Origin: an uncultured Bacilli bacterium
GTDB lineage: Bacteria > Bacillota_I > Bacilli_A > RF39 > UBA660
Length of the DNA stretch: 64,000 bases
Reading direction: 5' to 3'
Assembly (NCBI GenBank): GCA_944372455.1
Contig: CALVZF010000001.1
Location: 1,815 to 65,814, forward strand
The notes below the pieces were generated by a model. It was not told the origin of the DNA. It did not search any database and was given only the letters and a program-made list of their open reading frames with translations. How positions within the stretch are numbered: position 1 is the first letter of the stretch; the number at the start of each line of letters is the position of its first letter. Shown here piece after piece: positions 10,807 to 45,612 of this stretch. The position numbers and the translations under genes are program-made.

Positions 10807-13632
10807 CTATTCTGTTGTAGGAGGGTTACTATTATCAACAACATTAACTGTTCTGGTTAATTTTTTTGTTTGATCTTTATAACTTACTTTGTATGTAATT
10901 GTGTAACTACCTGCAACACTAGTATCAAGAGTTTCAGGAGTCTTAACTATAGTTGCTTTACTAGATACATCATCGTTTCCTTCTAGAACAAATATTCCTG
11001 GATCATTAAATGTTTCTCCTACATTTAAAGTTATTACTTCATCTCCATTTAATTTAAATATTATTGGCTCAGTTTCAATAGTTTCAGTTAAATCTACTGA
11101 AGTACTAACTCCATTACTTTCAATACCATCTATATTTGAATAACTTGTTTTAACTACAAAAGTATATTTTTTATTTTCGTTTAAAGTAATTTTATAGCTT
11201 GTAGCATCTGTAGTTCCAATTTTGGTACCATCTTGATAAATTGAATAAGTTGGTAATCCACTTGTATCAGGCATAATAGGTGCGGTCCAACTAAGAGTAA
11301 CTGTTTGACCATTAACTTTAGCACTTAATCCTGAAACATCTGGAATTTTCATATTAGTATTATCTGTTTCAGTAGGTTCAGTTCCTTTTTTAAAGTATTC
11401 GTATAATACTTGATCTGATGGAGTATAATCACTAGCAAGTTTTAATGGATCTGATCCACGTACCACTTTAACTTTTACAACACTATCTGGTGCTTTAAAT
11501 GTTTTACCTGTTTTTTCAAATATTCCTCTTGCAATTGCATTCCATAATGCAGTTCTATCTGACCAGTTAGCAGTAGTAAAATAATGATCACTGTAAATTT
11601 TTTCATATCCAAACCACATACCAATTGCATATTCTTGATCATACCCAACTTCCCATAAATCATTAATTGCAGTTGATTTTAAACCATGTGCGGCTTTTGT
11701 TTCTTCATCAAAATTTGAAGTTCCGGTTTTAGCAGCATATTGAACACCAGATATTCTACCACCACCGATGTTACCACTATTAATTCCGTTATTTAAGATA
11801 TCAGTAATCATAAATGCAGTAGAATCTGACATTGCTCTAGTTTTTTTAGGAGTGAAAGTTTCTTCACTTCCATCTTCATCATAAATAATTTTAGTTACAG
11901 AATAAGGTTCTATATAATATCCACCATTTCCGAAAGCCGCATAAGCAGCTGCCATTTGAAGAGGGTTACAACCTGTAAAAGCTCCAAGCGCATGTGCCTC
12001 ATGCAAATCTTCTTCTGGAGTAATTCCAAGTCCTTCTACGAATTCTCTAATTTTTTTCTTATCATTTTGTTGAAAAGCTTTAACTGCTGGAATATTTCTA
12101 GATGTAGCTAATGCTTGCCTCATAGTTAAAGTTCCTCTATACGTTCCATCTGAATTTCTAATTGGCGTTCCATCACTATATGTGTAAGGTTCATCTACAA
12201 ATGTTTTAGCTGGACTCCATCCTTCGTATTCTAAACCTGGTCCATAGTCAAATAATGGTTTTGCAGTAGATCCTATTTGTCTTTTTATCATTGTCGCATT
12301 ATTTAAGGTTTTAGCACCTACCTTATTTCTACCGCCACCAATAGCTACTATAGCTCCAGTATTTATATCAGTAACTGCAATTCCTGCTTGAACTACGTCA
12401 TCTTTAAATTTATATATTTCTCCTGCTAGAATTTTTTCTATATAATCTTGTTTTTCTGGTATCAGAGTAGTATAAATTTGCATTGAAACATTATACGGAC
12501 TTTTTCCTGTTTTCTTTTCTACCTCACTTGTTACTATATCTAAATAAGCTTGATATTTATTTTTACTAGTAGCATTATTTGATAACATGTCTTCTATTTT
12601 TACTTCACTAGCAGCTTTTCTTTCTTCTTCAGTTATATATCCGTGTCTTTTCATTAAATATAAAACTGTATTTCTACGTTTTTCAGTATTTTCAGGGTTT
12701 ATTGTTGGATCATAGGTATTAGGTGCTTGAAACATTCCTGCAATCATTGCAGCTTCTGGTAAAGATAAATCTTTTACATCTTTTCCAAAGTATGAACGGC
12801 TTGCTTGTTGTACACCGTAAGCACCATTTCCCAAATAAGGAATATTAACATAGAATTCCATAATTTCTTCTTTGGTGTATTGTTTTTCTAGTTTAAATAC
12901 AGCTAAATATATATCTGTAAACTTTCTAGTTAAAGTTTGTTTTTTACTTGTAAATCTATTTTTTACAATTTGCATTGATAGAGTAGATGCACCACCACCA
13001 TCTTTTCCCATTAATTGTTTAATTGTCGCTACTGTAAATCTTCCAAAGTCAACTCCATTATGTTTAAAGAAGTTAGCATCTTCGGTAGCTAAAATCGCAT
13101 CAATTAGAATTTGTGGTAATTCATCGTAAGATACTTTTTCACGTTTTTCCAAACCTAATTCAGCAATAATGTTATTATTACTATCATATACCACACTTTT
13201 TTCTTTAGAATAAAGTTTTTCTGCATCAAAAGAAGGAGCATTTAAAACTATATATCCCATAAATCCTGCCATAATAACTAATCCGGCAAAAATAATAATT
13301 AAAAAAGCTAATAAGACATTGTTTAATTTTTTTCGTTTTTTAGGTTTTTTCTCTTTTGAAATTTTTTCTTTTTTTGCATCATTAATTGTCGTGATTTCAA
13401 TAGTATCACTTTTATTTTTTCCCTTTTTAATTCTTTTCATTATATCATCTCCATATTCGTATATTACATATATTGACGCTATTACTAATAAAAGTAAAAC
13501 TGTTTTAATTATACCAATTACAAATATTCCAATTATTAATATTAAAAAACTTAGGAAAAATATCGGTATTAAATCTTCTTTTCCTTTGAAAAAGTTTTTA
13601 ATTTTTGATATTAAATTTTTCATTAAATTCAC
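10807..13632 (-). CDS. ponA: class A penicillin-binding protein 1A (transglycosylase + transpeptidase, C-terminal Ig/Fn3-like repeats)
   Basis: GT51 motifs (EDANFFKHNGVD, RQIGSTAKP), transpeptidase SxxK/SxN/KTG (AKTGTS). True start may be the internal MKRIKKGK near 13437, which gives a single TM. Confidence 0.9.
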   Translation of the reverse strand: MNLMKNLISKIKNFFKGKEDLIPIFFLSFLILIIGIFVIGIIKTVLLLLVIASIYVIYEYGDDIMKRIKKGKNKSDTIEITTINDAKKEKISKEKKPKKRKKLNNVLLAFLIIIFAGLVIMAGFMGYIVLNAPSFDAEKLYSKEKSVVYDSNNNIIAELGLEKREKVSYDELPQILIDAILATEDANFFKHNGVDFGRFTVATIKQLMGKDGGGASTLSMQIVKNRFTSKKQTLTRKFTDIYLAVFKLEKQYTKEEIMEFYVNIPYLGNGAYGVQQASRSYFGKDVKDLSLPEAAMIAGMFQAPNTYDPTINPENTEKRRNTVLYLMKRHGYITEEERKAASEVKIEDMLSNNATSKNKYQAYLDIVTSEVEKKTGKSPYNVSMQIYTTLIPEKQDYIEKILAGEIYKFKDDVVQAGIAVTDINTGAIVAIGGGRNKVGAKTLNNATMIKRQIGSTAKPLFDYGPGLEYEGWSPAKTFVDEPYTYSDGTPIRNSDGTYRGTLTMRQALATSRNIPAVKAFQQNDKKKIREFVEGLGITPEEDLHEAHALGAFTGCNPLQMAAAYAAFGNGGYYIEPYSVTKIIYDEDGSEETFTPKKTRAMSDSTAFMITDILNNGINSGNIGGGRISGVQYAAKTGTSNFDEETKAAHGLKSTAINDLWEVGYDQEYAIGMWFGYEKIYSDHYFTTANWSDRTALWNAIARGIFEKTGKTFKAPDSVVKVKVVRGSDPLKLASDYTPSDQVLYEYFKKGTEPTETDNTNMKIPDVSGLSAKVNGQTVTLSWTAPIMPDTSGLPTYSIYQDGTKIGTTDATSYKITLNENKKYTFVVKTSYSNIDGIESNGVSTSVDLTETIETEPIIFKLNGDEVITLNVGETFNDPGIFVLEGNDDVSSKATIVKTPETLDTSVAGSYTITYKVSYKDQTKKLTRTVNVVDNSNPPTTE

Positions 13633-14200
13633 CTCTATACAAATTATCTACTACTTTTAAATAGTCAATTCTTGGTTGAAATTTATAATCTAATATAGTT
13701 GCTTTTTCTTCAAAATAAGAAATTGGGATTGATTTTCTGCTTCTTTCTTCTATAAAAGCTATTAAATCTTCACCCTTTAAAAGAAATAATTTATTTAAAG
13801 TTGTAAAACTTACTATGATAAATCCAATCCCTCCATGTTTTATTATAGCATTTAAATGAGCTATTTGATGTTTATGTATATTTGAAAGTGGAAATGAAGT
13901 TTTATTTTTAGTTTCTTTAGCTTCAAAATCTATATATTTACCTTTATAAATTCCATTATAATCTGTAGTTGATGGAATTTTATAATGTGCTTCTGTTATT
14001 ACTGCATCTATTCTTGATGGATAATCTACTTTATTGACAGTTATAGGAGTAGGTTTCTTATGTATAACTGCTATATCGTTATCTAAATAGTATTTATTAG
14101 TAACATTTATATCTGTTTCTAAATTCATCCCACGATTTCCATAGTATACATCTTTTTTTATAGATTTTTTAATTCCAGCTGGGTACTTCATTTTGCTCAC
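13598..14200 (-). CDS. recU: Holliday-junction resolvase RecU
   Basis: Near-colinear with B. subtilis RecU ([52 protein letters not shown]). Confidence 0.9.
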   Translation of the reverse strand: [200 protein letters not shown]

Positions 14201-16977: not shown

Positions 16978-17117
16978 TATTTGGGTTATTGACATATAAT
17001 GTGTTAATAATCTTTTTATTTGTAAAAATTATCATTTTAACTTTTTTTTACTTGAAAATGCTTTTTATATATAATATAATTTAAATAGTATTAAAGTAGA
17101 GAATGGTGGGATTTCCA

Positions 17118-18956
17118 ATGACTAATAAAAGTGGTTTTTTTGGAATAAGAGAAATATATGCTTCATTTATATTAGTAGCTACTATGATATTTGTTTCCAT
17201 TTTTTCTTCAATGGCTGTATTTCAAAAGACAGTAGAAAAAGTAGGAGTTGCTTCATTAGTTGCTAATAATGTTAATCAAGTTTTATCTTCAACTGAAAGC
17301 TCATTTGTTTTATCAACAGATAAAACTTATGGAACTATTTTGGTTTCTTCTGGTAGTAGTAAATTTTTTGATATTACTATTACTAACGATAAAAATATAA
17401 ATACAAAGTATAAACTTTATTATAGGTTTACTTCTGGAGTTACAGTTTTGGATGTAGAGGTTGGTGTTTCTGATCAAAGTTTGAATAGTTCAAGTGCTAG
17501 TTTAAATAAATCTGGAAATGATGGTAATTCAAAAGTAGTTAGAGTTGGTATAAGAAATACTTCTAATCAAGATGTATCTATAGATATTGGTTCTCAAGGT
17601 GGATATGAAAATAATGAAGTTATATTACTTTCTGGAAGAAATGAAATGGGTACAATTTTAGAAAGTTATAAAGATAGTAGTGGAGCAAATTCACCAAAAT
17701 TAGCAAGCGGAATGATACCTGTAATTTATGATTCTGATAATGATAAATGGTTAAAAGCAGATGTTACAAGCGAGTGGTATGATTATGATAATCAATGGTG
17801 GGCTAATGCAGTAACAGTAACAAGTGATACTAGATCTACTTATCAAAGTGCTAGTCCATTAACTGAAATAAGTATGGATGATATCAATACTATGTGGGTA
17901 TGGATTCCAAGGTACAAATATAAAATTCCATGTGATATAGGTAGTAGTTCATCAATTGCTAGTCCACCAGAAATAGATGTAATATTTGAAAATGGTGTAG
18001 ATACCACGGGAGAAGAATTAGCAGATTGTCCAATAACATCAACAAGTTGTTATTATACTCATCCAGCATTTAGAGATGGAAGTAGTGTATATAAAACAAT
18101 AGCTTACGATCAAGGAGGTTGGGATAAAGAATTAGAAGGAATATGGGTAGGAAAATTTGAAATGGGCGGTAATAATACAACCCCAATAATAAAACCTAAT
18201 GAAATAACACTAAAAATTCAAGATGTAAGTACTCAATTTGATACATCATTAAAGTTTGCCGGTGGATCAAGAAATACAAGTAACGGAGCAATAACATTTT
18301 CAGGAAATAATATATATGGATTAACAAGTAGTACTGATACCCATATGATGAAAAATACTGAGTGGGGAGCAGTGGCTTACCTTTCGCAAAGTAAATATGG
18401 AAAGATGGGAAATTCAAATTATAGTGGGACAGATAAAGAAATTTATAAAAATAATAGTAGTACATATACAGGAAGAAGTAGCGGAAGTCCAAATGGTTCA
18501 GCTAATATTTATTCTTATAATGATACTATTTGTTCTGATACTTCCTGTGATGGGTCCAAGGTATTAAATAAAGGTACGGGGGCAAGTACTACAGGAACTA
18601 TATATGGTATTTATGATATGCACGGGGGAGCAAATGAATATATAATGAGTAACTGGGAAAATGATGTAAACATATCTGGATTTGATACAAATAATTTACC
18701 TGGGGGAAGTAATGGAAGCAAATATTACGAAAAATACACAGGATCTAATTCATCAATTGATGTAAATAATGCAATAAAAGGAGACGCAACATATGAGGTA
18801 AATAACTGGTATTTTGATTATAAGATAGATTCTGTCATTATTAGTTGGATTAATCGTGGATCAGGCTATGATGATAGCGATGGAGGAATTTTTGCATACG
18901 GTTCTTATGATGGTTATTCTGGTATAAATTCTACTCATGTAGTCTTGATTCCGTAA
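17118..18956 (+). CDS. membrane-anchored protein with FGE-sulfatase (SUMF1/EgtB/PvdO)-like domain
   Basis: N-terminal hydrophobic segment (possible degenerate pilin-like signal G-FFGIRE). C-terminal motifs resemble the FGE family (TEWGAVAYLSQSKYG; GIYDMHGGANEY vs YDMSGNVWEW). Confidence 0.4.
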   Translation: MTNKSGFFGIREIYASFILVATMIFVSIFSSMAVFQKTVEKVGVASLVANNVNQVLSSTESSFVLSTDKTYGTILVSSGSSKFFDITITNDKNINTKYKLYYRFTSGVTVLDVEVGVSDQSLNSSSASLNKSGNDGNSKVVRVGIRNTSNQDVSIDIGSQGGYENNEVILLSGRNEMGTILESYKDSSGANSPKLASGMIPVIYDSDNDKWLKADVTSEWYDYDNQWWANAVTVTSDTRSTYQSASPLTEISMDDINTMWVWIPRYKYKIPCDIGSSSSIASPPEIDVIFENGVDTTGEELADCPITSTSCYYTHPAFRDGSSVYKTIAYDQGGWDKELEGIWVGKFEMGGNNTTPIIKPNEITLKIQDVSTQFDTSLKFAGGSRNTSNGAITFSGNNIYGLTSSTDTHMMKNTEWGAVAYLSQSKYGKMGNSNYSGTDKEIYKNNSSTYTGRSSGSPNGSANIYSYNDTICSDTSCDGSKVLNKGTGASTTGTIYGIYDMHGGANEYIMSNWENDVNISGFDTNNLPGGSNGSKYYEKYTGSNSSIDVNNAIKGDATYEVNNWYFDYKIDSVIISWINRGSGYDDSDGGIFAYGSYDGYSGINSTHVVLIP

Positions 18957-19172: not shown

Positions 19173-19790
19173 TTAGAATTTTCTATATAATCCTATAGCT
19201 TTTCCTAAAATAGTAACACTATCTAAAATTATAGGATTCATCGTGTCATTTTCTGGTTGTAATCTAAAATAACCTTTTTCTTTATAGTATGTTTTTAATG
19301 TTACCTCATTATCCTTTGTCATTGCAACCACTATATCTCCATTACGTGCAGTATTTTGTTTTTGTACTATTACTATATCCTTATCAAATATTCCTGCATT
19401 TATCATACTTTCTCCACTAACATTTAAAGTAAAAACTTCTTTTTGTTTAGGAATTAAAAATGCAGGTAAAGAAAAAAATTCATTTGGTCTTTCAATTGCT
19501 TCAATTGGACTTCCAGCGGTTACTTTTCCTAATAAAGGAACTTCTACTACTTCTTCATTTTTATTTTCGTATTCGTTTTCTACTAATAATTCTAAAGCTC
19601 TATTTTTTGAACTATCTTTTTTGATAAACCCCTTAGCTTCTAAGTTATTTAAATGCGAGTGAATTGTAGCAGGGGAAGAAAGTCCTAAAGCTTTACCAAT
19701 TTCTCTTACTGTTGGGGGATATCCATTAGATACTATAAATTCTTTTATATAATTTAAGATTTCTGTTTGTCTATCAGTTAATTTTTCCAT
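19173..19790 (-). CDS. lexA: LexA repressor
   Basis: wHTH N-terminus (LTDRQTEILNYIKEF...TVREIG), Ala-Gly cleavage site (VTAGSPIEA), S24 peptidase Ser/Lys motifs. Probable start MEKL at 19790. Confidence 0.9.
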   Translation of the reverse strand: MEKLTDRQTEILNYIKEFIVSNGYPPTVREIGKALGLSSPATIHSHLNNLEAKGFIKKDSSKNRALELLVENEYENKNEEVVEVPLLGKVTAGSPIEAIERPNEFFSLPAFLIPKQKEVFTLNVSGESMINAGIFDKDIVIVQKQNTARNGDIVVAMTKDNEVTLKTYYKEKGYFRLQPENDTMNPIILDSVTILGKAIGLYRKF

Positions 19791-19839
19791 TAGACCAACT
19801 CCTTTATGTATATATATTAACACACATTTACAATTTTGT

Positions 19840-19890
19840 CAAACAATTGTTCGCAAAACTCTTGACACGAACGTGTGTTCGGTATAGAAT
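19840..19890. promoter_or_regulatory. two LexA (Cheo/SOS) boxes in a divergent promoter region: CGAACGTGTGTTCG (19868-19881) and CAAACAATTGTTCG (19840-19853)
   Basis: Perfect CGAAC-N4-GTTCG palindrome lies in the 17 nt spacer between TTGACA (19862-67) and TAGAAT (19885-90). A second, one-mismatch box overlaps the likely lexA promoter. Confidence 0.7.
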
Positions 19891-19916
19891 ATTAAGTGTG
19901 AAGGGAAGTTGATAGT

Positions 19917-20069
19917 ATGTTAAATAATGTTTTGAAACAAAGAAAGGAATTATTTTTATTTTTATTAATGTTTATTCTATTTGCATATTTTGCTGTAATT
20001 CGTGTAGATCATTTAGAAAATGGATATATTAACCATGAAAATATTATAGAAATGGTGTATAATAAATGA
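19917..20069 (+). CDS. small membrane protein, putative SOS-induced gene (YneA-like position, no LysM)
   Basis: 50 aa ORF with one TM helix, immediately downstream of the Cheo-box promoter and divergent from lexA. Confidence 0.35.
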   Translation: MLNNVLKQRKELFLFLLMFILFAYFAVIRVDHLENGYINHENIIEMVYNK

Positions 20070-20245
20070 AAGAAAATGTTTTAAGATTTTTTAATGGTAA
20101 CATTTTAAGAAATAAAATCATGGTTAAACTTTGGGATGACAAACAACAAAAATGGTATTTTGAAGTTATTAATGTGAAAAAAGAAGAAGCTAATGCTATA
20201 ATTAGTTATGATGAATTATTAAATAGGAGTAAGCATAAGAAATAA
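20066..20245 (+). CDS. small hypothetical protein
   Basis: 59 aa ORF whose start overlaps the stop of the previous ORF (ATGA). Confidence 0.3.
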   Translation: MKENVLRFFNGNILRNKIMVKLWDDKQQKWYFEVINVKKEEANAIISYDELLNRSKHKK

Positions 20246-20256
20246 GAGGCGGTAGT

Positions 20257-21093
20257 ATGATAACTATTAAAAATAGTTCTATTAATTTAAAAGATACAAT
20301 TACTTGTGGACAATGTTTTAGATTTTTTGAGGAAGAAGATAATAGTTTTACTATTATTTTGAGTGATAGAGTTATAAACATTAAGCAAGTTGATAATGAA
20401 TTAATTATTATTTCAAATAATGAAGATAATTTAGAAAATGTTATTAAAGAATATTTTGATTTAAATACTAATTATGATGAAATTAATAAATATTTGTTAT
20501 CATTAGATGATAAGTTAAAAGAGGCTATTACAGATTCTAAAGGTTTTAAAATATTAAGACAAGATCCTTTTGAAATGTTGATTTCCTATATAATATCTCA
20601 AAATAACAATGTAAAAAGAATAATGAAATCTGTAGATAAATTAGCTTTGAAGTATGGGGAAAAAAGTGAATTTAACAATAAGATATATTACTTATTTCCT
20701 AAATACGAAAAATTAAAAGATATATCAATAGATGATTTAAAAGATATTGGTGTAGGTTTTAGAGATTCATACATTATAAATGCATTAGACCTTATTAAAA
20801 ATAATACTATTAATTTGGATAAAATAAATGACATGAGTACTGATGAAGCGCTAAGTTATTTAGAATTAATAAAAGGGGTAGGTCCTAAAGTGGCTTCTTG
20901 TATTCTACTTTTTTCTTATCATAAATATGATGTTTTTCCTGTGGATACTTGGGTTACTAAAGCTATGTTAGTACTTTATCCTAATATTGAATCAAATCAA
21001 AACAAAATTATAGAGTTTGCAAAAGAAAAATATGGTATTTATTCTGGAGTTGCACTTCAATATATGTATCATTATATGAGAAATTTGAAATAA
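20257..21093 (+). CDS. HhH-GPD DNA glycosylase (Ogg/AlkA-like, 8-oxoguanine glycosylase candidate)
   Basis: OGG-like N-domain, HhH-GPD motif with catalytic Asp (GVGPKVASCILLFSYHKYDVFPVDTWV). Confidence 0.6.
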   Translation: MITIKNSSINLKDTITCGQCFRFFEEEDNSFTIILSDRVINIKQVDNELIIISNNEDNLENVIKEYFDLNTNYDEINKYLLSLDDKLKEAITDSKGFKILRQDPFEMLISYIISQNNNVKRIMKSVDKLALKYGEKSEFNNKIYYLFPKYEKLKDISIDDLKDIGVGFRDSYIINALDLIKNNTINLDKINDMSTDEALSYLELIKGVGPKVASCILLFSYHKYDVFPVDTWVTKAMLVLYPNIESNQNKIIEFAKEKYGIYSGVALQYMYHYMRNLK

Positions 21094-21171
21094 ACATTTT
21101 AGTTTATTTTTTTAATGTTTTAAAAGTGTTTTAAATTTTGTTTACGACTATTATTATTGGGGAGGTAAAAT

Positions 21172-23286
21172 ATGAAAAAAAGAATAATAGTCATTAAACA
21201 AGAAGGTGTAAAAGACTGTGGAGTAGCTTCTTTACTTTCTATAATTAAATATTATGGTGGAAATATTGGTATAGAAAGATTAAGAGAAGAAACAAAAACT
21301 ACTAAGAATGGTACTACTGCTTTTCATTTAATTGATTATGCAAATAAAATAGGATTTAGTTCTAAAGGAATAAAATGTGCAGATATAAATGACTTGAAAT
21401 CTATCACTCTTCCTGCAATTGCTCATTTAGTTATCAATAAATCATATAAACATTATGTAGTAATTTATAAAGTAGATTTTAAACATAATGTAATAACAAT
21501 TATGGATCCTGCCTATGGTGTTAAGAAATTAACTTTTAAAGAGTTTAATAATATTTGGTCAAAAGTTATTATAACTTTTTATCCAATTGGTAAGATATCA
21601 AAATATGAGCAAAATAATAAAATTTATTCCTTAATCAAAAATATTCTTTTATCAAATAAAAGATTAATTTTTTGTACCATTATATTATCAATTTTTGTAA
21701 TAGGGTCAAATATTGTTAATTCTTATTATTTTAAAATTATAATTGATAATTTTTTTGGTAATTCTTTTTATAGTTTTTGTTTTATATCATTTATATTTGC
21801 TTTAATAATATTTTTAAAATTAATAAGTGATTATTTTAGAAATAAATTACTATTTAGCCTTCAACAAAAAATTGATTTTAATTTAATAACCACTTCTTTT
21901 AAACATATTATTAACCTCCCATATAACTATTTTAAAAACCATACTTCTGGAGAATTAATATCGAGAATTAACGATTTAAACTATATTAAAGAAATACTTA
22001 GTAAAATAATACTCAATGTTTTTTTAGATTCTATAATGATAATTTTTATTGCTATTATTTTATTTAATATTAATTTAAAATTATTTATTATAACTATCTT
22101 TATGTGTATGTTATATCTATTGATTGTTATTATCTTTTCTAAACTTTTTAAAAAACAAATTTTAATTTCTCAGATAAAATTTTCTAAAACTAATTCTTAC
22201 ATGTTTGAATGTACTAATGGGTTTGAAACAATAAAAAATATGAATTTAGAGAACAAAATTACTAATAATTTTGAAAATAAATATGTAGATTATCTAGGAC
22301 ATGAATACAAAGTTAGAAATTATAATAATATACAACAATTTTTTAAGAGTTTAATAAATGATATTGGTTCTTTAATAATTCTTTTTACAGGATATGTTTT
22401 AGTACTTCAAAACAAATTAAGTTTAGGGGAACTTATAACTTTCAATGTACTTTTATCATATTTTGTAAATCCTATAAGAAATATTCTTGATTTGGAGCCA
22501 TTAGTTAGATATGCTTTATCATCTTTAAAAAGAATTAATGAAATCTTTGAAATCAAACAAGAAAATCTATGTATTGATAATAAATATAGCGGTTGTAATA
22601 TTAAAGGAGAACTAGAGTTTAAAGGTCTTACATTTTCTTTTAATGATAAAGATAATATTCTAAATAATATAAATCTTAAAATTAGAAAAGGAGAGAGAAT
22701 AGCTATTATTGGTAAAAGTGGGTGTGGAAAATCTACTATGTTAAAATTGATTTTAAGATATAATGATATTAAAAGAAATATGATTTTTATTGATGGTAAA
22801 GATATTAATGATTATAATCTTAAAGAACTTAGAAATAATATTACATATGTATCACAAAACGAAGTATTGTTTAATGATACTATAATGAATAATATTTTGA
22901 TTAAAAATAATTTAGATTATGATACTTTTTTAAATAAGTGTAAATTAACTTTAGTAAATAATATTTGTAACAATAAATATTTAGGTTATGATACTTTATT
23001 AGAGGAAAATGGATTTAACTTATCAGGTGGAGAAAGAGAAAGAATAATTCTTTGTAGGGCTCTTACCAAAAATTCTAATTTAATTATTTTAGATGAAGCT
23101 TTAAATCAAATTGATGTAGATATGGAAAGAAAGATTTTGAAAAATTTATTTAGTTTGACTTTACACAAAACTATTATTGTTGTTTCACATAGGTTAGAAA
23201 ATTTAGATTTATTTGACAGAATTATAACAATGGAAAACGGGAATATCAAAAAAACAAATAAGAGAAGAGTTTATATTAATGGATGA
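21172..23286 (+). CDS. peptidase-C39 ABC transporter (bacteriocin/peptide exporter, ComA/LagD-like)
   Basis: N-terminal C39 domain with catalytic Cys (GVKDCGVASL), 6 TM helices, Walker A GKSGCGKST, signature LSGGERER. Confidence 0.9.
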   Translation: MKKRIIVIKQEGVKDCGVASLLSIIKYYGGNIGIERLREETKTTKNGTTAFHLIDYANKIGFSSKGIKCADINDLKSITLPAIAHLVINKSYKHYVVIYKVDFKHNVITIMDPAYGVKKLTFKEFNNIWSKVIITFYPIGKISKYEQNNKIYSLIKNILLSNKRLIFCTIILSIFVIGSNIVNSYYFKIIIDNFFGNSFYSFCFISFIFALIIFLKLISDYFRNKLLFSLQQKIDFNLITTSFKHIINLPYNYFKNHTSGELISRINDLNYIKEILSKIILNVFLDSIMIIFIAIILFNINLKLFIITIFMCMLYLLIVIIFSKLFKKQILISQIKFSKTNSYMFECTNGFETIKNMNLENKITNNFENKYVDYLGHEYKVRNYNNIQQFFKSLINDIGSLIILFTGYVLVLQNKLSLGELITFNVLLSYFVNPIRNILDLEPLVRYALSSLKRINEIFEIKQENLCIDNKYSGCNIKGELEFKGLTFSFNDKDNILNNINLKIRKGERIAIIGKSGCGKSTMLKLILRYNDIKRNMIFIDGKDINDYNLKELRNNITYVSQNEVLFNDTIMNNILIKNNLDYDTFLNKCKLTLVNNICNNKYLGYDTLLEENGFNLSGGERERIILCRALTKNSNLIILDEALNQIDVDMERKILKNLFSLTLHKTIIVVSHRLENLDLFDRIITMENGNIKKTNKRRVYING

Positions 23287-23713
23287 AATAATTAATATTA
23301 AAGATTATAAAAATTTAGATATATTAGAGTTTAAATATACCCATAAGTATTTAATAGTCTGTTTAGTAATACTAACAATGATTGTTATAATGTTATTAAA
23401 CATTAATGTTAATTTTATGTATGAAAATAAATTGTTAGTTCAAAAGAATTGTATAATTACTTTAATTAATATTGAAGATATAGATTTATTTAATAGAGTT
23501 AACTATATTACTATAGGTAATAAAAAATATAATTTTAAAATTCAATCTTTAAGTATACCTAAAAAAGTTAATAATGATTTTTATCAAGAGTTAAGATTAA
23601 CTTTAAATAATTTTAATTCTACAGAAAATGAAGTTATACCATATAGTATAAATTATGAATCTAAAAAAGTTTTTAAAATAGTTAAAGAAATCTTTAATGA
23701 TAGGAGGGCATGA
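23279..23713 (+). CDS. small membrane protein, bacteriocin accessory or immunity candidate
   Basis: 144 aa with one TM helix; translationally coupled between the exporter and the peptide genes. Confidence 0.35.
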   Translation: MDEIINIKDYKNLDILEFKYTHKYLIVCLVILTMIVIMLLNINVNFMYENKLLVQKNCIITLINIEDIDLFNRVNYITIGNKKYNFKIQSLSIPKKVNNDFYQELRLTLNNFNSTENEVIPYSINYESKKVFKIVKEIFNDRRA

Positions 23714-23850
23714 TGTTATTAAGTAATGAACAATTATTAGAAATTGAAGGAGGTATAAATACACTTACATTTTCTGGGATACTAGGTGGAATTATTTTTT
23801 TAATTGGCATAGTATCTGGATTTGTAAGACCAATTAAATGTTCAAAATAG
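23710..23850 (+). CDS. double-glycine-leader bacteriocin precursor (peptide alpha)
   Basis: RBS TAGGAGGG; leader MMLLSNEQLLEIEGG; mature INTLTFSGILGGIIFLIGIVSGFVRPIKCSK (GxxxG-rich, cationic C-terminus). Not in the ORF track. Confidence 0.65.
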   Translation: MMLLSNEQLLEIEGGINTLTFSGILGGIIFLIGIVSGFVRPIKCSK

Positions 23851-23865
23851 GAGGTTGAAGTAAAA

Positions 23866-24033
23866 ATGGAATTAAAAAAAGAAGAATTATTAAATATAGA
23901 AGGGGGAATCAATCTTTCTGGAACCCTTATATCAGCTTTTACTAAAATTATTACTACAATATTAGATGTTGGTAGAAGTCTAGGTTCAGCACTTAGAAGG
24001 ATTAGTAGTGGTATGGTATGTCCCTTAAGTTAA
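23866..24033 (+). CDS. double-glycine-leader bacteriocin precursor (peptide beta)
   Basis: RBS GGAGG; leader MELKKEELLNIEGG; mature 41 aa peptide with a GxxxG motif and a single Cys. Not in the ORF track. Confidence 0.65.
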   Translation: MELKKEELLNIEGGINLSGTLISAFTKIITTILDVGRSLGSALRRISSGMVCPLS

Positions 24034-24204: not shown

Positions 24205-24399
24205 ATGGTACATGTATCAGTTAAAAATGATAATGTTGATGGTGCACTTAAAGTTTTTAAACAAAAATTTGCTAAAAGTGGAGTCCCTTCTGAAATCAAG
24301 AAAAGAAAACACTATGACAAACCTGGGGTAAAAAGAAGATTAGAAAAAAAAGAAGGAATTAAAAATTCTAGAAGAAATGCAAGAAAAAACAGAGACTAA
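24205..24399 (+). CDS. rpsU: 30S ribosomal protein S21
   Basis: 64 aa, highly basic, FKQKFAKSGV...KRKHYDKPGVKRR signature. Confidence 0.9.
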   Translation: MVHVSVKNDNVDGALKVFKQKFAKSGVPSEIKKRKHYDKPGVKRRLEKKEGIKNSRRNARKNRD

Positions 24400-24436
24400 T
24401 AAATCTCTGTTTCTTTAATGTTTTATAAAAAAATAG

Positions 24437-24465
24437 AAAGGTTGCACCCCCTGAGGGCAACCTTT
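24437..24465 (+). terminator. GC-rich stem-loop after rpsU containing the CCCCCTGAGG motif
   Basis: AAAGGTTGC-ACCCCCTGAGG-GCAACCTTT; 9 bp stem, no strong T-run. Confidence 0.4.
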
Positions 24466-24658
24466 CAAAAAAGAATAAAAAGGGGTTGGCTAGTGTGATA
24501 CTAGCACCAATTCGCCTAATTGGGAATTGGTAGTTCCTATACTAATTCATCTTTAAATATTTGTCAACATTTTTTAACATTTTTTTTAATTTTTTTCAAT
24601 ATAGTTTTTTTTAATAGTTATTTTAGTTATAATATTATATAAGAAAAAGGTGATCATC

Positions 24659-26785: not shown

Positions 26786-26823
26786 CCCCCTGAAGACGGA
26801 CTTATGTCCGTCGCTTTTTGTTT
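26786..26823 (+). repeat. CCCCCTGAAGAC + hairpin + T-run element (terminator-like), copy B
   Basis: CCCCCTGAAGACGGAC-TTAT-GTCCGTC-GCTTTTTGTTT. Same motif as 32990-33028 with compensatory stem changes. Confidence 0.5.
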
Positions 26824-44977: not shown

Positions 44978-45502
44978 ATGATTAACAAACAAAGTATATG
45001 GTTTTTAACACTTTTCAGTCTAATACTTGTTTTAAGCGTTTATTACATTACAATGCCAAATGAACTTCTTTTAACTAATAATTCAACGCAAACTACTAAA
45101 AATGAAGAAAAAACTGAAACTACTAGTAAAACTGATGACGTAGTAGTAAAAGAAAGTGAAGTTTTGACGGCTCTAAGAGTAGAAGCAGAAGAAAAAAGAA
45201 CAGAAGAAATTAATGAGTTAAACAAAACTTTAAATAATAAAGAAGCTAGTGTTGAAGATAAAAATAATGCATTTGAAAAAATAAAAGATTTAAATTCTAT
45301 AAAAGGAAAAGAACAGTTATTAGAAAAAAAGATTAAAGAAGAATACAAATTAGATGCATTTGTAAAAGTTGATGATAATAATCAAGTAAGAGTAGTAGTA
45401 TCAAGTAGCGAACAAAGCGTAGAACTTGCTAACAACATTATGAGATTAGTCCAAGAAAACTTTGATACAAAGATGTATATATCTGTAAAATTTCAAAGCT
45501 AA
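44978..45502 (+). CDS. SpoIIIAH-like sporulation protein (N-terminal TM + YscJ/FliF-like C-domain)
   Basis: Architecture and C-terminal FVKVDDNNQVRVVVSS... resemble SpoIIIAH; lies upstream of gerE. Confidence 0.4.
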   Translation: MINKQSIWFLTLFSLILVLSVYYITMPNELLLTNNSTQTTKNEEKTETTSKTDDVVVKESEVLTALRVEAEEKRTEEINELNKTLNNKEASVEDKNNAFEKIKDLNSIKGKEQLLEKKIKEEYKLDAFVKVDDNNQVRVVVSSSEQSVELANNIMRLVQENFDTKMYISVKFQS

Positions 45503-45612
45503 CAATTGTTAGTTTTTTTAGTTAAAAAGCCTTTCACTTATATTTAACATAAACATACAATACTATGAGTAAAAATATAAGCCACCTCTATTAGGAGGAA
45601 AGGAAGGGAAAT

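Follow-up and report, generated by a model that had tools for sequence, protein, structure and literature searches.

A lexA-divergent operon under putative LexA control with a very small LysM-less membrane peptide in uncultured gut Bacilli

We analyzed a stretch of 64,000 nucleotides (nt) from the genome of an uncultured Bacilli bacterium (contig CALVZF010000001.1 of assembly GCA_944372455.1, positions 1,815 to 65,814; hereafter, the window), which is very AT-rich, with a GC content of 24.2% over the entire 64 kb. The locus of interest consists of a lexA gene on the minus strand and a divergent set of three plus-strand genes that encode, in this order, a peptide of 50 amino acids (aa) with a single transmembrane (TM) segment (pep50), a 59-aa basic protein (p59), and a DNA glycosylase (ogg) (Table 1). 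lexA and the divergent genes share a 123-bp intergenic region that contains two back-to-back sigma-70 promoters and two putative LexA boxes. A preliminary description of this DNA had proposed that the promoter facing away from lexA belongs to the SOS response, with the small membrane protein as a candidate cell-division inhibitor and the glycosylase as additional cargo; below we examine the regulatory region, the genes behind it and their conservation, and then weigh the possible functions of the peptide.

The lexA intergenic region and its two boxes

The identity of lexA is readily established. The product combines the Pfam domains LexA_DNA_bind and Peptidase_S24 and scores 234.7 bits with the NCBIfam lexA equivalog TIGR00498, for which the cut-off is 111 (E = 7e-70). 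An alignment with LexA of Bacillaceae, Clostridia, and Lachnospiraceae shows no variation at the Ala-Gly cleavage site or at the catalytic Ser/Lys, and the recognition-helix region, SSPATIHSHL, is close to the SSSTVHGHL of Bacillaceae. The gene is preceded by a good ribosome-binding site (RBS), AAAGGAG. An exact sequence look-up of the window LexA gave no record, and related loci were reached via the peptide instead.

The lexA promoter matches 10 of the 12 consensus positions and carries a TG before the -10 element, and the promoter of the divergent operon, with 11 of 12, is the best promoter-like site of the region in the promoter scan. Each of the two is covered by its own putative LexA operator. 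The preliminary description had located a perfect Cheo box within the 17-nt spacer of the TTGACA/TAGAAT promoter that faces away from lexA, and both the coordinates and the sequence of this site (box 2) are right. It had also reported a second, near-perfect box towards lexA, which is indeed present (box 1), although the separation between the two is 14 nt rather than 15 (28 bp from centre to centre); the position of box 1 on lexA's own promoter is a feature absent from that description. Taken on the lexA strand, the sequence of box 1 is CGAACAATTGTTTG, the final three bases of which also open the lexA -35 element, TTGACA. The sole "mismatch" of the box is the very base needed for an intact TTGACA on the lexA strand.

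These boxes stand out from the background of the window. A search of the 64 kb for CGAAC-N4-GTTCG with at most 1 mismatch returned two sites, both of them the boxes described here, where 0.12 would be expected, and two matches were obtained in 1 of 100 shuffles of the sequence; no further LexA box at this threshold exists elsewhere in the window. With up to 2 mismatches allowed, 7 sites were found vs 2.5 expected, the two real boxes included, and the five sites with 2 mismatches are near chance. Two other sequences, CGGACTTATGTCCG at 26797-26810 and CTAACAATTGTTAG at 45499-45512, are perfectly symmetric palindromes, each two mirrored positions off the LexA box; they might serve other regulators as operators or match by chance.

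Further evidence comes from comparison with other genomes. Scanning one genome per species with the LexA alignment yielded 24 genomes in which LexA identity is 73% or higher; these are all metagenome-assembled genomes (MAGs) of uncultured gut "Bacilli," "Tenericutes," or "Erysipelotrichaceae," with humans, goats, rabbits, mice, and others as hosts. The same intergenic architecture, with both boxes and both promoters kept in position, is present in all 24. A phylogenetic footprint was compiled from 23 aligned species and 8 metagenomic loci. In the 23-species alignment, the invariant columns include, on the lexA side, GTCAAAC, that is, one arm of box 1 together with the lexA -35 element, and the GTT of the other arm; on the side of the divergent promoter, TTGA.A of the -35 element and GAA and GT..G of the box 2 arms; and both -10 hexamers. 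The central 4 nt of each box and the remaining spacer positions vary freely, the box 2 centres of the relatives being GTGT, AATT, TCTT, ACTT, GAAA, and others. A LexA dimer site should leave just such a footprint, with fixed arms and free centres. Control of both promoters by LexA is strongly supported in silico by this phylogenetic footprinting, and the SOS promoter proposed in the preliminary description gains support in the same way, given that the boxes and promoters recur in every related locus, with the peptide always encoded by the first gene.

The conserved peptide and the genes downstream of it

Throughout the 24 related genomes, the gated promoter is followed first by a gene for a 44-52 aa single-TM peptide of the same architecture (those of loci L023 and L028, which the open reading frame (ORF) filter had passed over, were read by eye), and the peptide is likewise first behind this promoter in all independently retrieved metagenomic contigs. 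The genes that follow differ. The metagenomic contigs with exact or near relatives of pep50 (60-100% identity) show the order lexA, divergent pep50, p59, ogg, C39 ABC transporter, and homologues at 60-84% identity were found in this identical context, but the combination of p59, ogg, and the ABC transporter is confined to the subclade of the window (the window itself, L004-L012, and L014). Outside this subclade, the peptide gene is followed by genes for a transketolase, a protein of about 140 aa, and a UPF0154 protein (e.g., L074, 3196-5960; L076, 3216-3862; L013-L071), and in L015, L019, and L024, a hairpin with a T-run comes directly after the peptide gene. Because it is present in 24/24 genomes while the downstream genes differ, the peptide is the conserved cargo of the gated promoter, and judging from this gene content, p59-ogg is a lineage-specific addition outside the conserved core.

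The gene order of the relatives mirrors that of Bacillus subtilis, which we take to be lexA / yneA-yneB-ynzC / tkt / sirA / yneF, and the transketolase (tkt) and UPF0154 (yneF-family) genes downstream mark the position of the peptide as the yneA slot. The protein of about 140 aa that follows tkt (MRKYYLF...) has no Pfam match, where a match to SirA/YneE had been expected; we therefore do not label it SirA, and it could be a very diverged counterpart of SirA/YneE. The scan with the LexA alignment also recovered loci of Lachnospiraceae, Clostridia, and Bacillaceae, in which the divergent neighbour of lexA encodes a protein of 92-170 aa with one TM segment and a LysM domain, and these products are, by position and domain composition, YneA-like.

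pep50 is an ORF with an RBS. The residues K7, R9, and K10 precede a hydrophobic segment of about 18 residues (approximately, residues 11-28), and the positive-inside rule predicts an N-in/C-out topology. AlphaFold2 (AF2), run with a 56-sequence alignment, renders the peptide as one helix over residues 2-49, with a predicted local distance difference test (pLDDT) score of 87-93 over residues 11-30 and low values in the tail. No Pfam, NCBIfam, or PHROG match was obtained. In particular, LysM has no Pfam match in pep50 at E of 0.01 or better, and the 22-aa tail leaves no room for this domain, which is easily found in the proteins encoded at this position in other Firmicutes. The 50-aa single-TM peptide without LysM in the position of YneA, as the preliminary description had it, is thus borne out by the ORF, the domain scan, and synteny. 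That the ORF is real follows from the frame, length, and architecture being kept despite very frequent stop codons, from the RBS, from the coupling to p59 (the pep50 stop and p59 start codons overlap by 4 nt, ATGA, in all members of the subclade), and from a ratio of nonsynonymous to synonymous substitution rates (dN/dS) below 1 (0.25-0.8 on 50 codons).

A profile of 23 synteny-defined peptides revealed a family of at least 88 protein clusters at 90% identity, none of which has a name or a Pfam domain. Nearly all members are 42-50 aa long; a few are called at 56-71 aa, five of these via an upstream in-frame start. Three randomly chosen members each lie 130 bp from a divergent lexA. The family becomes visible only with the clade-wide alignment of synteny-defined peptides: a hidden Markov model of the five closest pep50 sequences gave 2 matches only among 1.84 billion representatives. 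The family consensus consists of MKEMLKSK, a TM segment with VLG[IV]xY/F, then xS...[KR][LM]E, and then ...I[VA]MxN[IL]K; the subfamily of the window (MLNNVLKQRK...VYNK) is a divergent branch. Some gene callers start the peptide 10-23 codons upstream (P0017, P0020, P0021, P0024, and P0027), which gives 58-71 aa; these starts, which read from within the promoter/operator region, look like annotation artefacts, the conserved start being the Met of MKEMLKSK. The small ORFs, which the preliminary description allowed might not be conserved, are present, pep50 in 24/24 genomes and p59 throughout the ogg-bearing subclade.

p59 always accompanies ogg and is under purifying selection (dN/dS 0.17-0.29). 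It has no Pfam or NCBIfam match and no informative homologue; the one clue to it is a match to phrog_25117, a family of phage proteins without known function, which at E = 0.0017 (residues 9-56) is weak and by itself not significant. The AF2 model of p59, built from a 3-sequence alignment, is a beta-hairpin with a helix and, at a pLDDT of 56.6, is unreliable. The third gene is far better defined. Its OGG_N and HhH-GPD domains score above the gathering thresholds (E = 3e-24 and 6e-7, respectively), the protein aligns over the full length with Clostridium acetobutylicum Ogg (PDB 3F0Z; about 45% identity, E = 6e-69), and both the GVGPKVA motif with the catalytic Lys, which is mutated to Gln in 3I0X, and the FPVDTW motif with the catalytic Asp are kept; dN/dS is 0.13-0.20. 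The preliminary description had named this protein an HhH-GPD glycosylase of Ogg/AlkA type. It is an Ogg; the OGG_N domain and the full-length Ogg alignment speak against AlkA. The window protein belongs with C. acetobutylicum Ogg in the family of human OGG1, with the same domains and catalytic motifs, and differs from it in sitting in a LexA-gated operon.

The grouping of pep50, p59, and ogg in one operon is strongly supported in silico. Between p59 and ogg there is a gap of 11 nt in the window and of 9-13 nt among the members of the subclade, and no terminator was found between the gated promoter and the end of ogg in the consensus scan. An AT-rich hairpin with a T-run overlaps the ogg stop codon, and the SOS transcript probably ends there by intrinsic termination; the consensus scan, which requires at least 3 G-C pairs, passed the hairpin over. 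Hairpins with T-runs of different sequences occur at the same position in L009, L010, L011, L012, and L014 (-4.7 to -12.3 kcal/mol). Given these signals, the transcript most likely extends from about 19897 to about 21113, that is, over about 1.2 kb, possibly with some read-through.

Table 1. Coordinates of the features of the lexA locus and the adjoining bacteriocin cluster in the window
Feature	Position	Strand	Description
lexA	19173..19793	-	206 aa from ATG 19793, stop at 19173; coordinates include the stop codon
lexA promoter	19814..19842	-	-35 TTGACA 19842-19837, 17-nt spacer, -10 TAATAT 19819-19814
LexA box 1	19840-19853		CAAACAATTGTTCG, 1 mismatch; overlaps -35 of the minus-strand lexA promoter
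Divergent-operon promoter	19862..19890	+	TTGACA 19862-19867, 17-nt spacer, TAGAAT 19885-19890
LexA box 2	19868-19881		CGAACGTGTGTTCG, perfect arms (0 mismatches); fills the 17-nt spacer of the divergent promoter
pep50	19917..20069	+	50 aa; ORF with RBS; basic N-terminus, TM, 22-aa polar C-terminal tail
p59	20066..20245	+	59-aa basic protein; start overlaps the pep50 stop (ATGA)
ogg	20257..21093	+	278 aa; OGG_N + HhH-GPD; Ogg1-type 8-oxoguanine DNA glycosylase/lyase
AT-rich hairpin + T-run	21087..21113	+	GAAATAAAC / GTTTATTTT; overlaps the ogg stop codon; RNAfold -5.8 kcal/mol
C39-peptidase ABC exporter	21172-23286		bacteriocin cluster
144-aa protein without family	23279-23713		bacteriocin cluster
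Two double-glycine-leader peptides	23710-23850, 23866-24033		bacteriocin cluster; both weak TIGR03949 matches

Candidate function of pep50 and rival explanations

In Gram-positive bacteria, small single-TM proteins encoded next to lexA are SOS division inhibitors, as exemplified by YneA, ChiZ, DivS, and SosA (PMC6851548). Two of these, DivS and the 77-aa SosA, have no LysM domain; in SosA, conservation is found in the part next to the membrane and at the extreme C-terminus, which acts as a degradation signal dependent on CtpA (PMC6851548). A 2026 study reported that the TM segment of YneA binds TM7 of FtsW, the LysM domain then being needed to block septal synthesis, and AlphaFold 3 (AF3) models place SosA, ChiZ, and SidA on FtsW as well (PMC13396833).

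Among these proteins, one of the closest counterparts of pep50 by description is SosA of Staphylococcus aureus, which is encoded divergently from lexA under LexA control and has an N-terminal single TM segment, a C-terminus predicted to be extracellular, and no LysM. As in SosA, the pep50 family is conserved just after the TM segment ([KR][LM]E) and at the extreme C-terminus; unlike SosA, with its tail of roughly 45 aa, members of the family are 42-52 aa long, with a tail of about 22 aa, and belong to uncultured gut Bacilli. Profile searches across the database brought up only 42-71-aa members of the clade's own family, which suggests that homology to SosA is not detectable. With YneA of B. 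subtilis and Listeria (TM plus LysM) and ChiZ of Mycobacterium, pep50 shares the slot divergent from lexA, the topology, and control by LexA boxes, but the LysM domain of YneA is lacking. Homology of pep50 to YneA-like proteins was rejected given the profile-profile hhalign probability of 1.5%, and with LysM lacking as well, pep50 is not a member of the YneA family. SidA of Caulobacter (29 aa) and DivS of Corynebacterium are similarly very small or LysM-less SOS membrane inhibitors that act on the late divisome (PMC6851548, PMC13396833). Both differ from pep50 in coming from unrelated lineages and having unrelated sequences. The sidA gene is not known to be adjacent to lexA. The naming of pep50 as a candidate division inhibitor in the preliminary description is supported by the yneA slot and the architecture; its novelty is tempered by the LysM-less precedents SosA and DivS (PMC6851548).

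We regard as fairly probable, taken as a whole, that the locus is a LexA-gated SOS operon, the conserved cargo of which is a minimal LysM-less functional counterpart of YneA/SosA. The individual steps, from LexA binding and induction by damage to division inhibition and its target, are those that we infer as follows. In the absence of damage, LexA dimers would occupy both operators. Box 1, lying over the lexA -35 element, would provide for autoregulation of lexA and would be intrinsically weaker because one of its arms must also serve as TTGACA; box 2, with its perfect arms, would tightly repress the divergent promoter, given that it fills the spacer and would exclude RNA polymerase. Upon damage, LexA self-cleavage stimulated by RecA would free both promoters, and the divergent one would give rise to the transcript of about 1.2 kb for pep50, p59, and Ogg. 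pep50 would insert in the membrane in the N-in/C-out orientation and, via its TM helix and short juxtamembrane tail, would most likely block a late step of the divisome, for example, septal wall synthesis dependent on FtsW and penicillin-binding proteins (PBPs). The conserved C-terminus is possibly a protease tag for recovery. In the subclade of the window, the same transcript would also raise the level of Ogg, for the removal of 8-oxoguanine, along with p59. The host appears to have the machinery that such an inhibitor requires: in the window, at 10807-14200 on the minus strand, recU adjoins a gene for a class A PBP with transglycosylase and transpeptidase domains and a C-terminal Ig-like domain, and one related locus contains a Mur ligase. 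Together, these genes imply a cell wall and, presumably, a conventional divisome, despite the "Tenericutes" labels of some sister MAGs, and make a septal wall-synthesis target plausible.

Several observations weigh against this interpretation. The function of pep50 is read from position and architecture: broad searches, including the clade-wide profile search, returned only the 42-71-aa members of its own family, and the comparison with YneA-like proteins cited above gave no detectable homology. For pep50, the dN/dS, computed on 50 codons, comes fairly near to 1 in some pairs, with values up to 0.8. The TM segment of YneA alone reaches the division site without inhibiting, LysM being required (PMC13396833), and hence the 22-aa tail of pep50 would need a different, SosA-like inhibitory mechanism that involves an extended helix or the tail. 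The terminator after ogg is weak in the window genome, which makes the 3' end of the transcript uncertain, and a TGCTATAAT-like promoter site inside p59, 55 nt upstream of ogg, may confer SOS-independent expression on Ogg. We put the narrower claim that pep50 is an SOS cell-division inhibitor, taken alone, at roughly even odds.

Three other explanations compete with this one. pep50 could be an SOS toxin that damages the membrane or promotes persistence by depolarisation rather than by targeting the divisome. TisB and DinQ of Escherichia coli are small, hydrophobic, and LexA-controlled, as pep50 appears to be; a peptide predicted as one long helix, without a domain that would point to a specific target, fits this type. 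The hallmarks of regulation in such systems are nevertheless missing at the locus: the leader of pep50 is only about 20 nt long, with an exposed RBS; the 5' region has no stable structure (fold z-score, -0.71); there is no Rfam match; and no conserved antisense partner is apparent, given that the downstream neighbourhood differs by species and minus-strand promoter-like sites occur at chance frequency. The peptide, moreover, keeps a conserved polar extracytoplasmic tail of 20-25 aa and sits exactly in the yneA/sosA slot, and we consider a toxin unlikely. We give the same low weight to the possibility that pep50 is induced in the SOS response for another role at the membrane, such as modulation of a protease, a transporter, or competence/pili, its slot being a relic of a truncated YneA that lost LysM. 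The inactivity of YneA without LysM (PMC13396833) would agree with this scenario, as would the lack of homology of the peptide family to any characterised inhibitor and the pilin-like N_methyl genes found nearby in some relatives. A non-functional relic, however, would keep neither its length, TM segment, and juxtamembrane and C-terminal motifs nor the perfect operator-in-promoter layout across a minimum of 24 species and 88 clusters, and SosA and DivS demonstrate that LysM is not required in this class (PMC6851548). In view of the conservation over at least 88 clusters, a decayed relic seems unlikely.

The remaining alternative concerns the extent of the operon: the peptide might be the only SOS cargo, with p59 and ogg transcribed mainly from a constitutive promoter of their own and placed next to it by the accidental insertion that brought in the bacteriocin cluster downstream. 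The co-occurrence of p59, ogg, and the C39 ABC transporter/bacteriocin genes in one subclade only, as well as the promoter-like site inside p59, would be explained in this way. The -10 element of that site is only partly conserved, not being kept in 4 of the 6 species (L009, L010, L012, and L014), while the ATGA overlap in all members, the short p59-ogg gap, and the lack of a terminator between the promoter and ogg, with a conserved one after it, tie the genes to the gated promoter. This alternative appears to us even more doubtful than the other two.

A bolder formulation can be put forward, tentatively and with somewhat less than even confidence: the 42-52-aa family might be the smallest SOS checkpoint effector of Gram-positive bacteria, a TM segment with a tail of about 20 residues that has no peptidoglycan-binding domain, stops the synthesis of septal wall (e.g., through binding to FtsW), and is universal in a large uncultured clade of AT-rich gut Bacilli, with one subclade adding to its SOS regulon Ogg and a 59-aa partner, the first LexA-controlled Ogg. 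As to the latter, the preliminary description had called an SOS-regulated base-excision glycosylase unusual. Such enzymes of the uracil-DNA glycosylase (UDG) type are known from an operon in Verrucomicrobia, Alphaproteobacteria, and Bacteroidetes (PMC4951493, PMC8565304), which limits that claim; our literature search found no report of an SOS-regulated (LexA-controlled) Ogg, and to this extent it stands. What is new here is a very small LysM-less SOS module with a subclade-specific Ogg/p59 extension; LysM-less inhibitors (SosA, DivS) and UDG-type SOS glycosylases were already known.

These findings provide a hypothesis at the level of function for a wholly unannotated family (at least 88 clusters of "hypothetical" proteins) that is present in every examined member of a common uncultured gut lineage, and would extend the rule that a small TM gene divergent from lexA is an SOS division brake to a clade in which the YneA-type LysM protein has been replaced. 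If pep50 is indeed an inhibitor, its 50 residues would offer a compact means of probing the late divisome, especially FtsW, recently put forward as the common target, and if the linkage of ogg holds, oxidative base repair would join the SOS-controlled functions. Current models are not overturned by any of these findings.

Neighbouring genes and minor features

Directly downstream of the SOS operon lies a class IIb-like bacteriocin cluster (21172-24033; Table 1), which co-occurs with p59-ogg in the one subclade. Nothing but the weak AT-rich hairpin behind ogg stands between this cluster and the transcript of the LexA-gated promoter, and SOS transcription could conceivably run on into the genes for bacteriocin export. 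In the stretch from ogg to the ABC transporter gene, the RBS of the latter (GGAGG) is paired with an upstream complement, for example, TCTTTCACATC...GGTGTGGAGG, in the minimum free energy (MFE) fold of L009, L010, L012, and L014; this pairing may act as a control element of translation or attenuation, and in the window itself (about 21125-21171) it is less evident.

On the other side of the locus, just past the 3' end of lexA, a 617-aa Ser/Asn/Gly-rich protein (17103-18956) has an N-terminal hydrophobic segment and no Pfam match. Genes for proteins with the N_methyl (prepilin-type) domain lie near lexA in L072, L073, and L076; in L017 and L021, such a gene comes immediately after that of the peptide.

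In the region 24206-24470 of the window, the bacteriocin genes are followed by rpsU, which encodes ribosomal protein S21, with a two-way hairpin terminator at 24384-24415, and by a strikingly GC-rich hairpin, AGGTTGCACCCCCTGAGGGCAACCT (about 24441-24466), which stands out in a genome with a GC content of 24%; recG starts at 24650.

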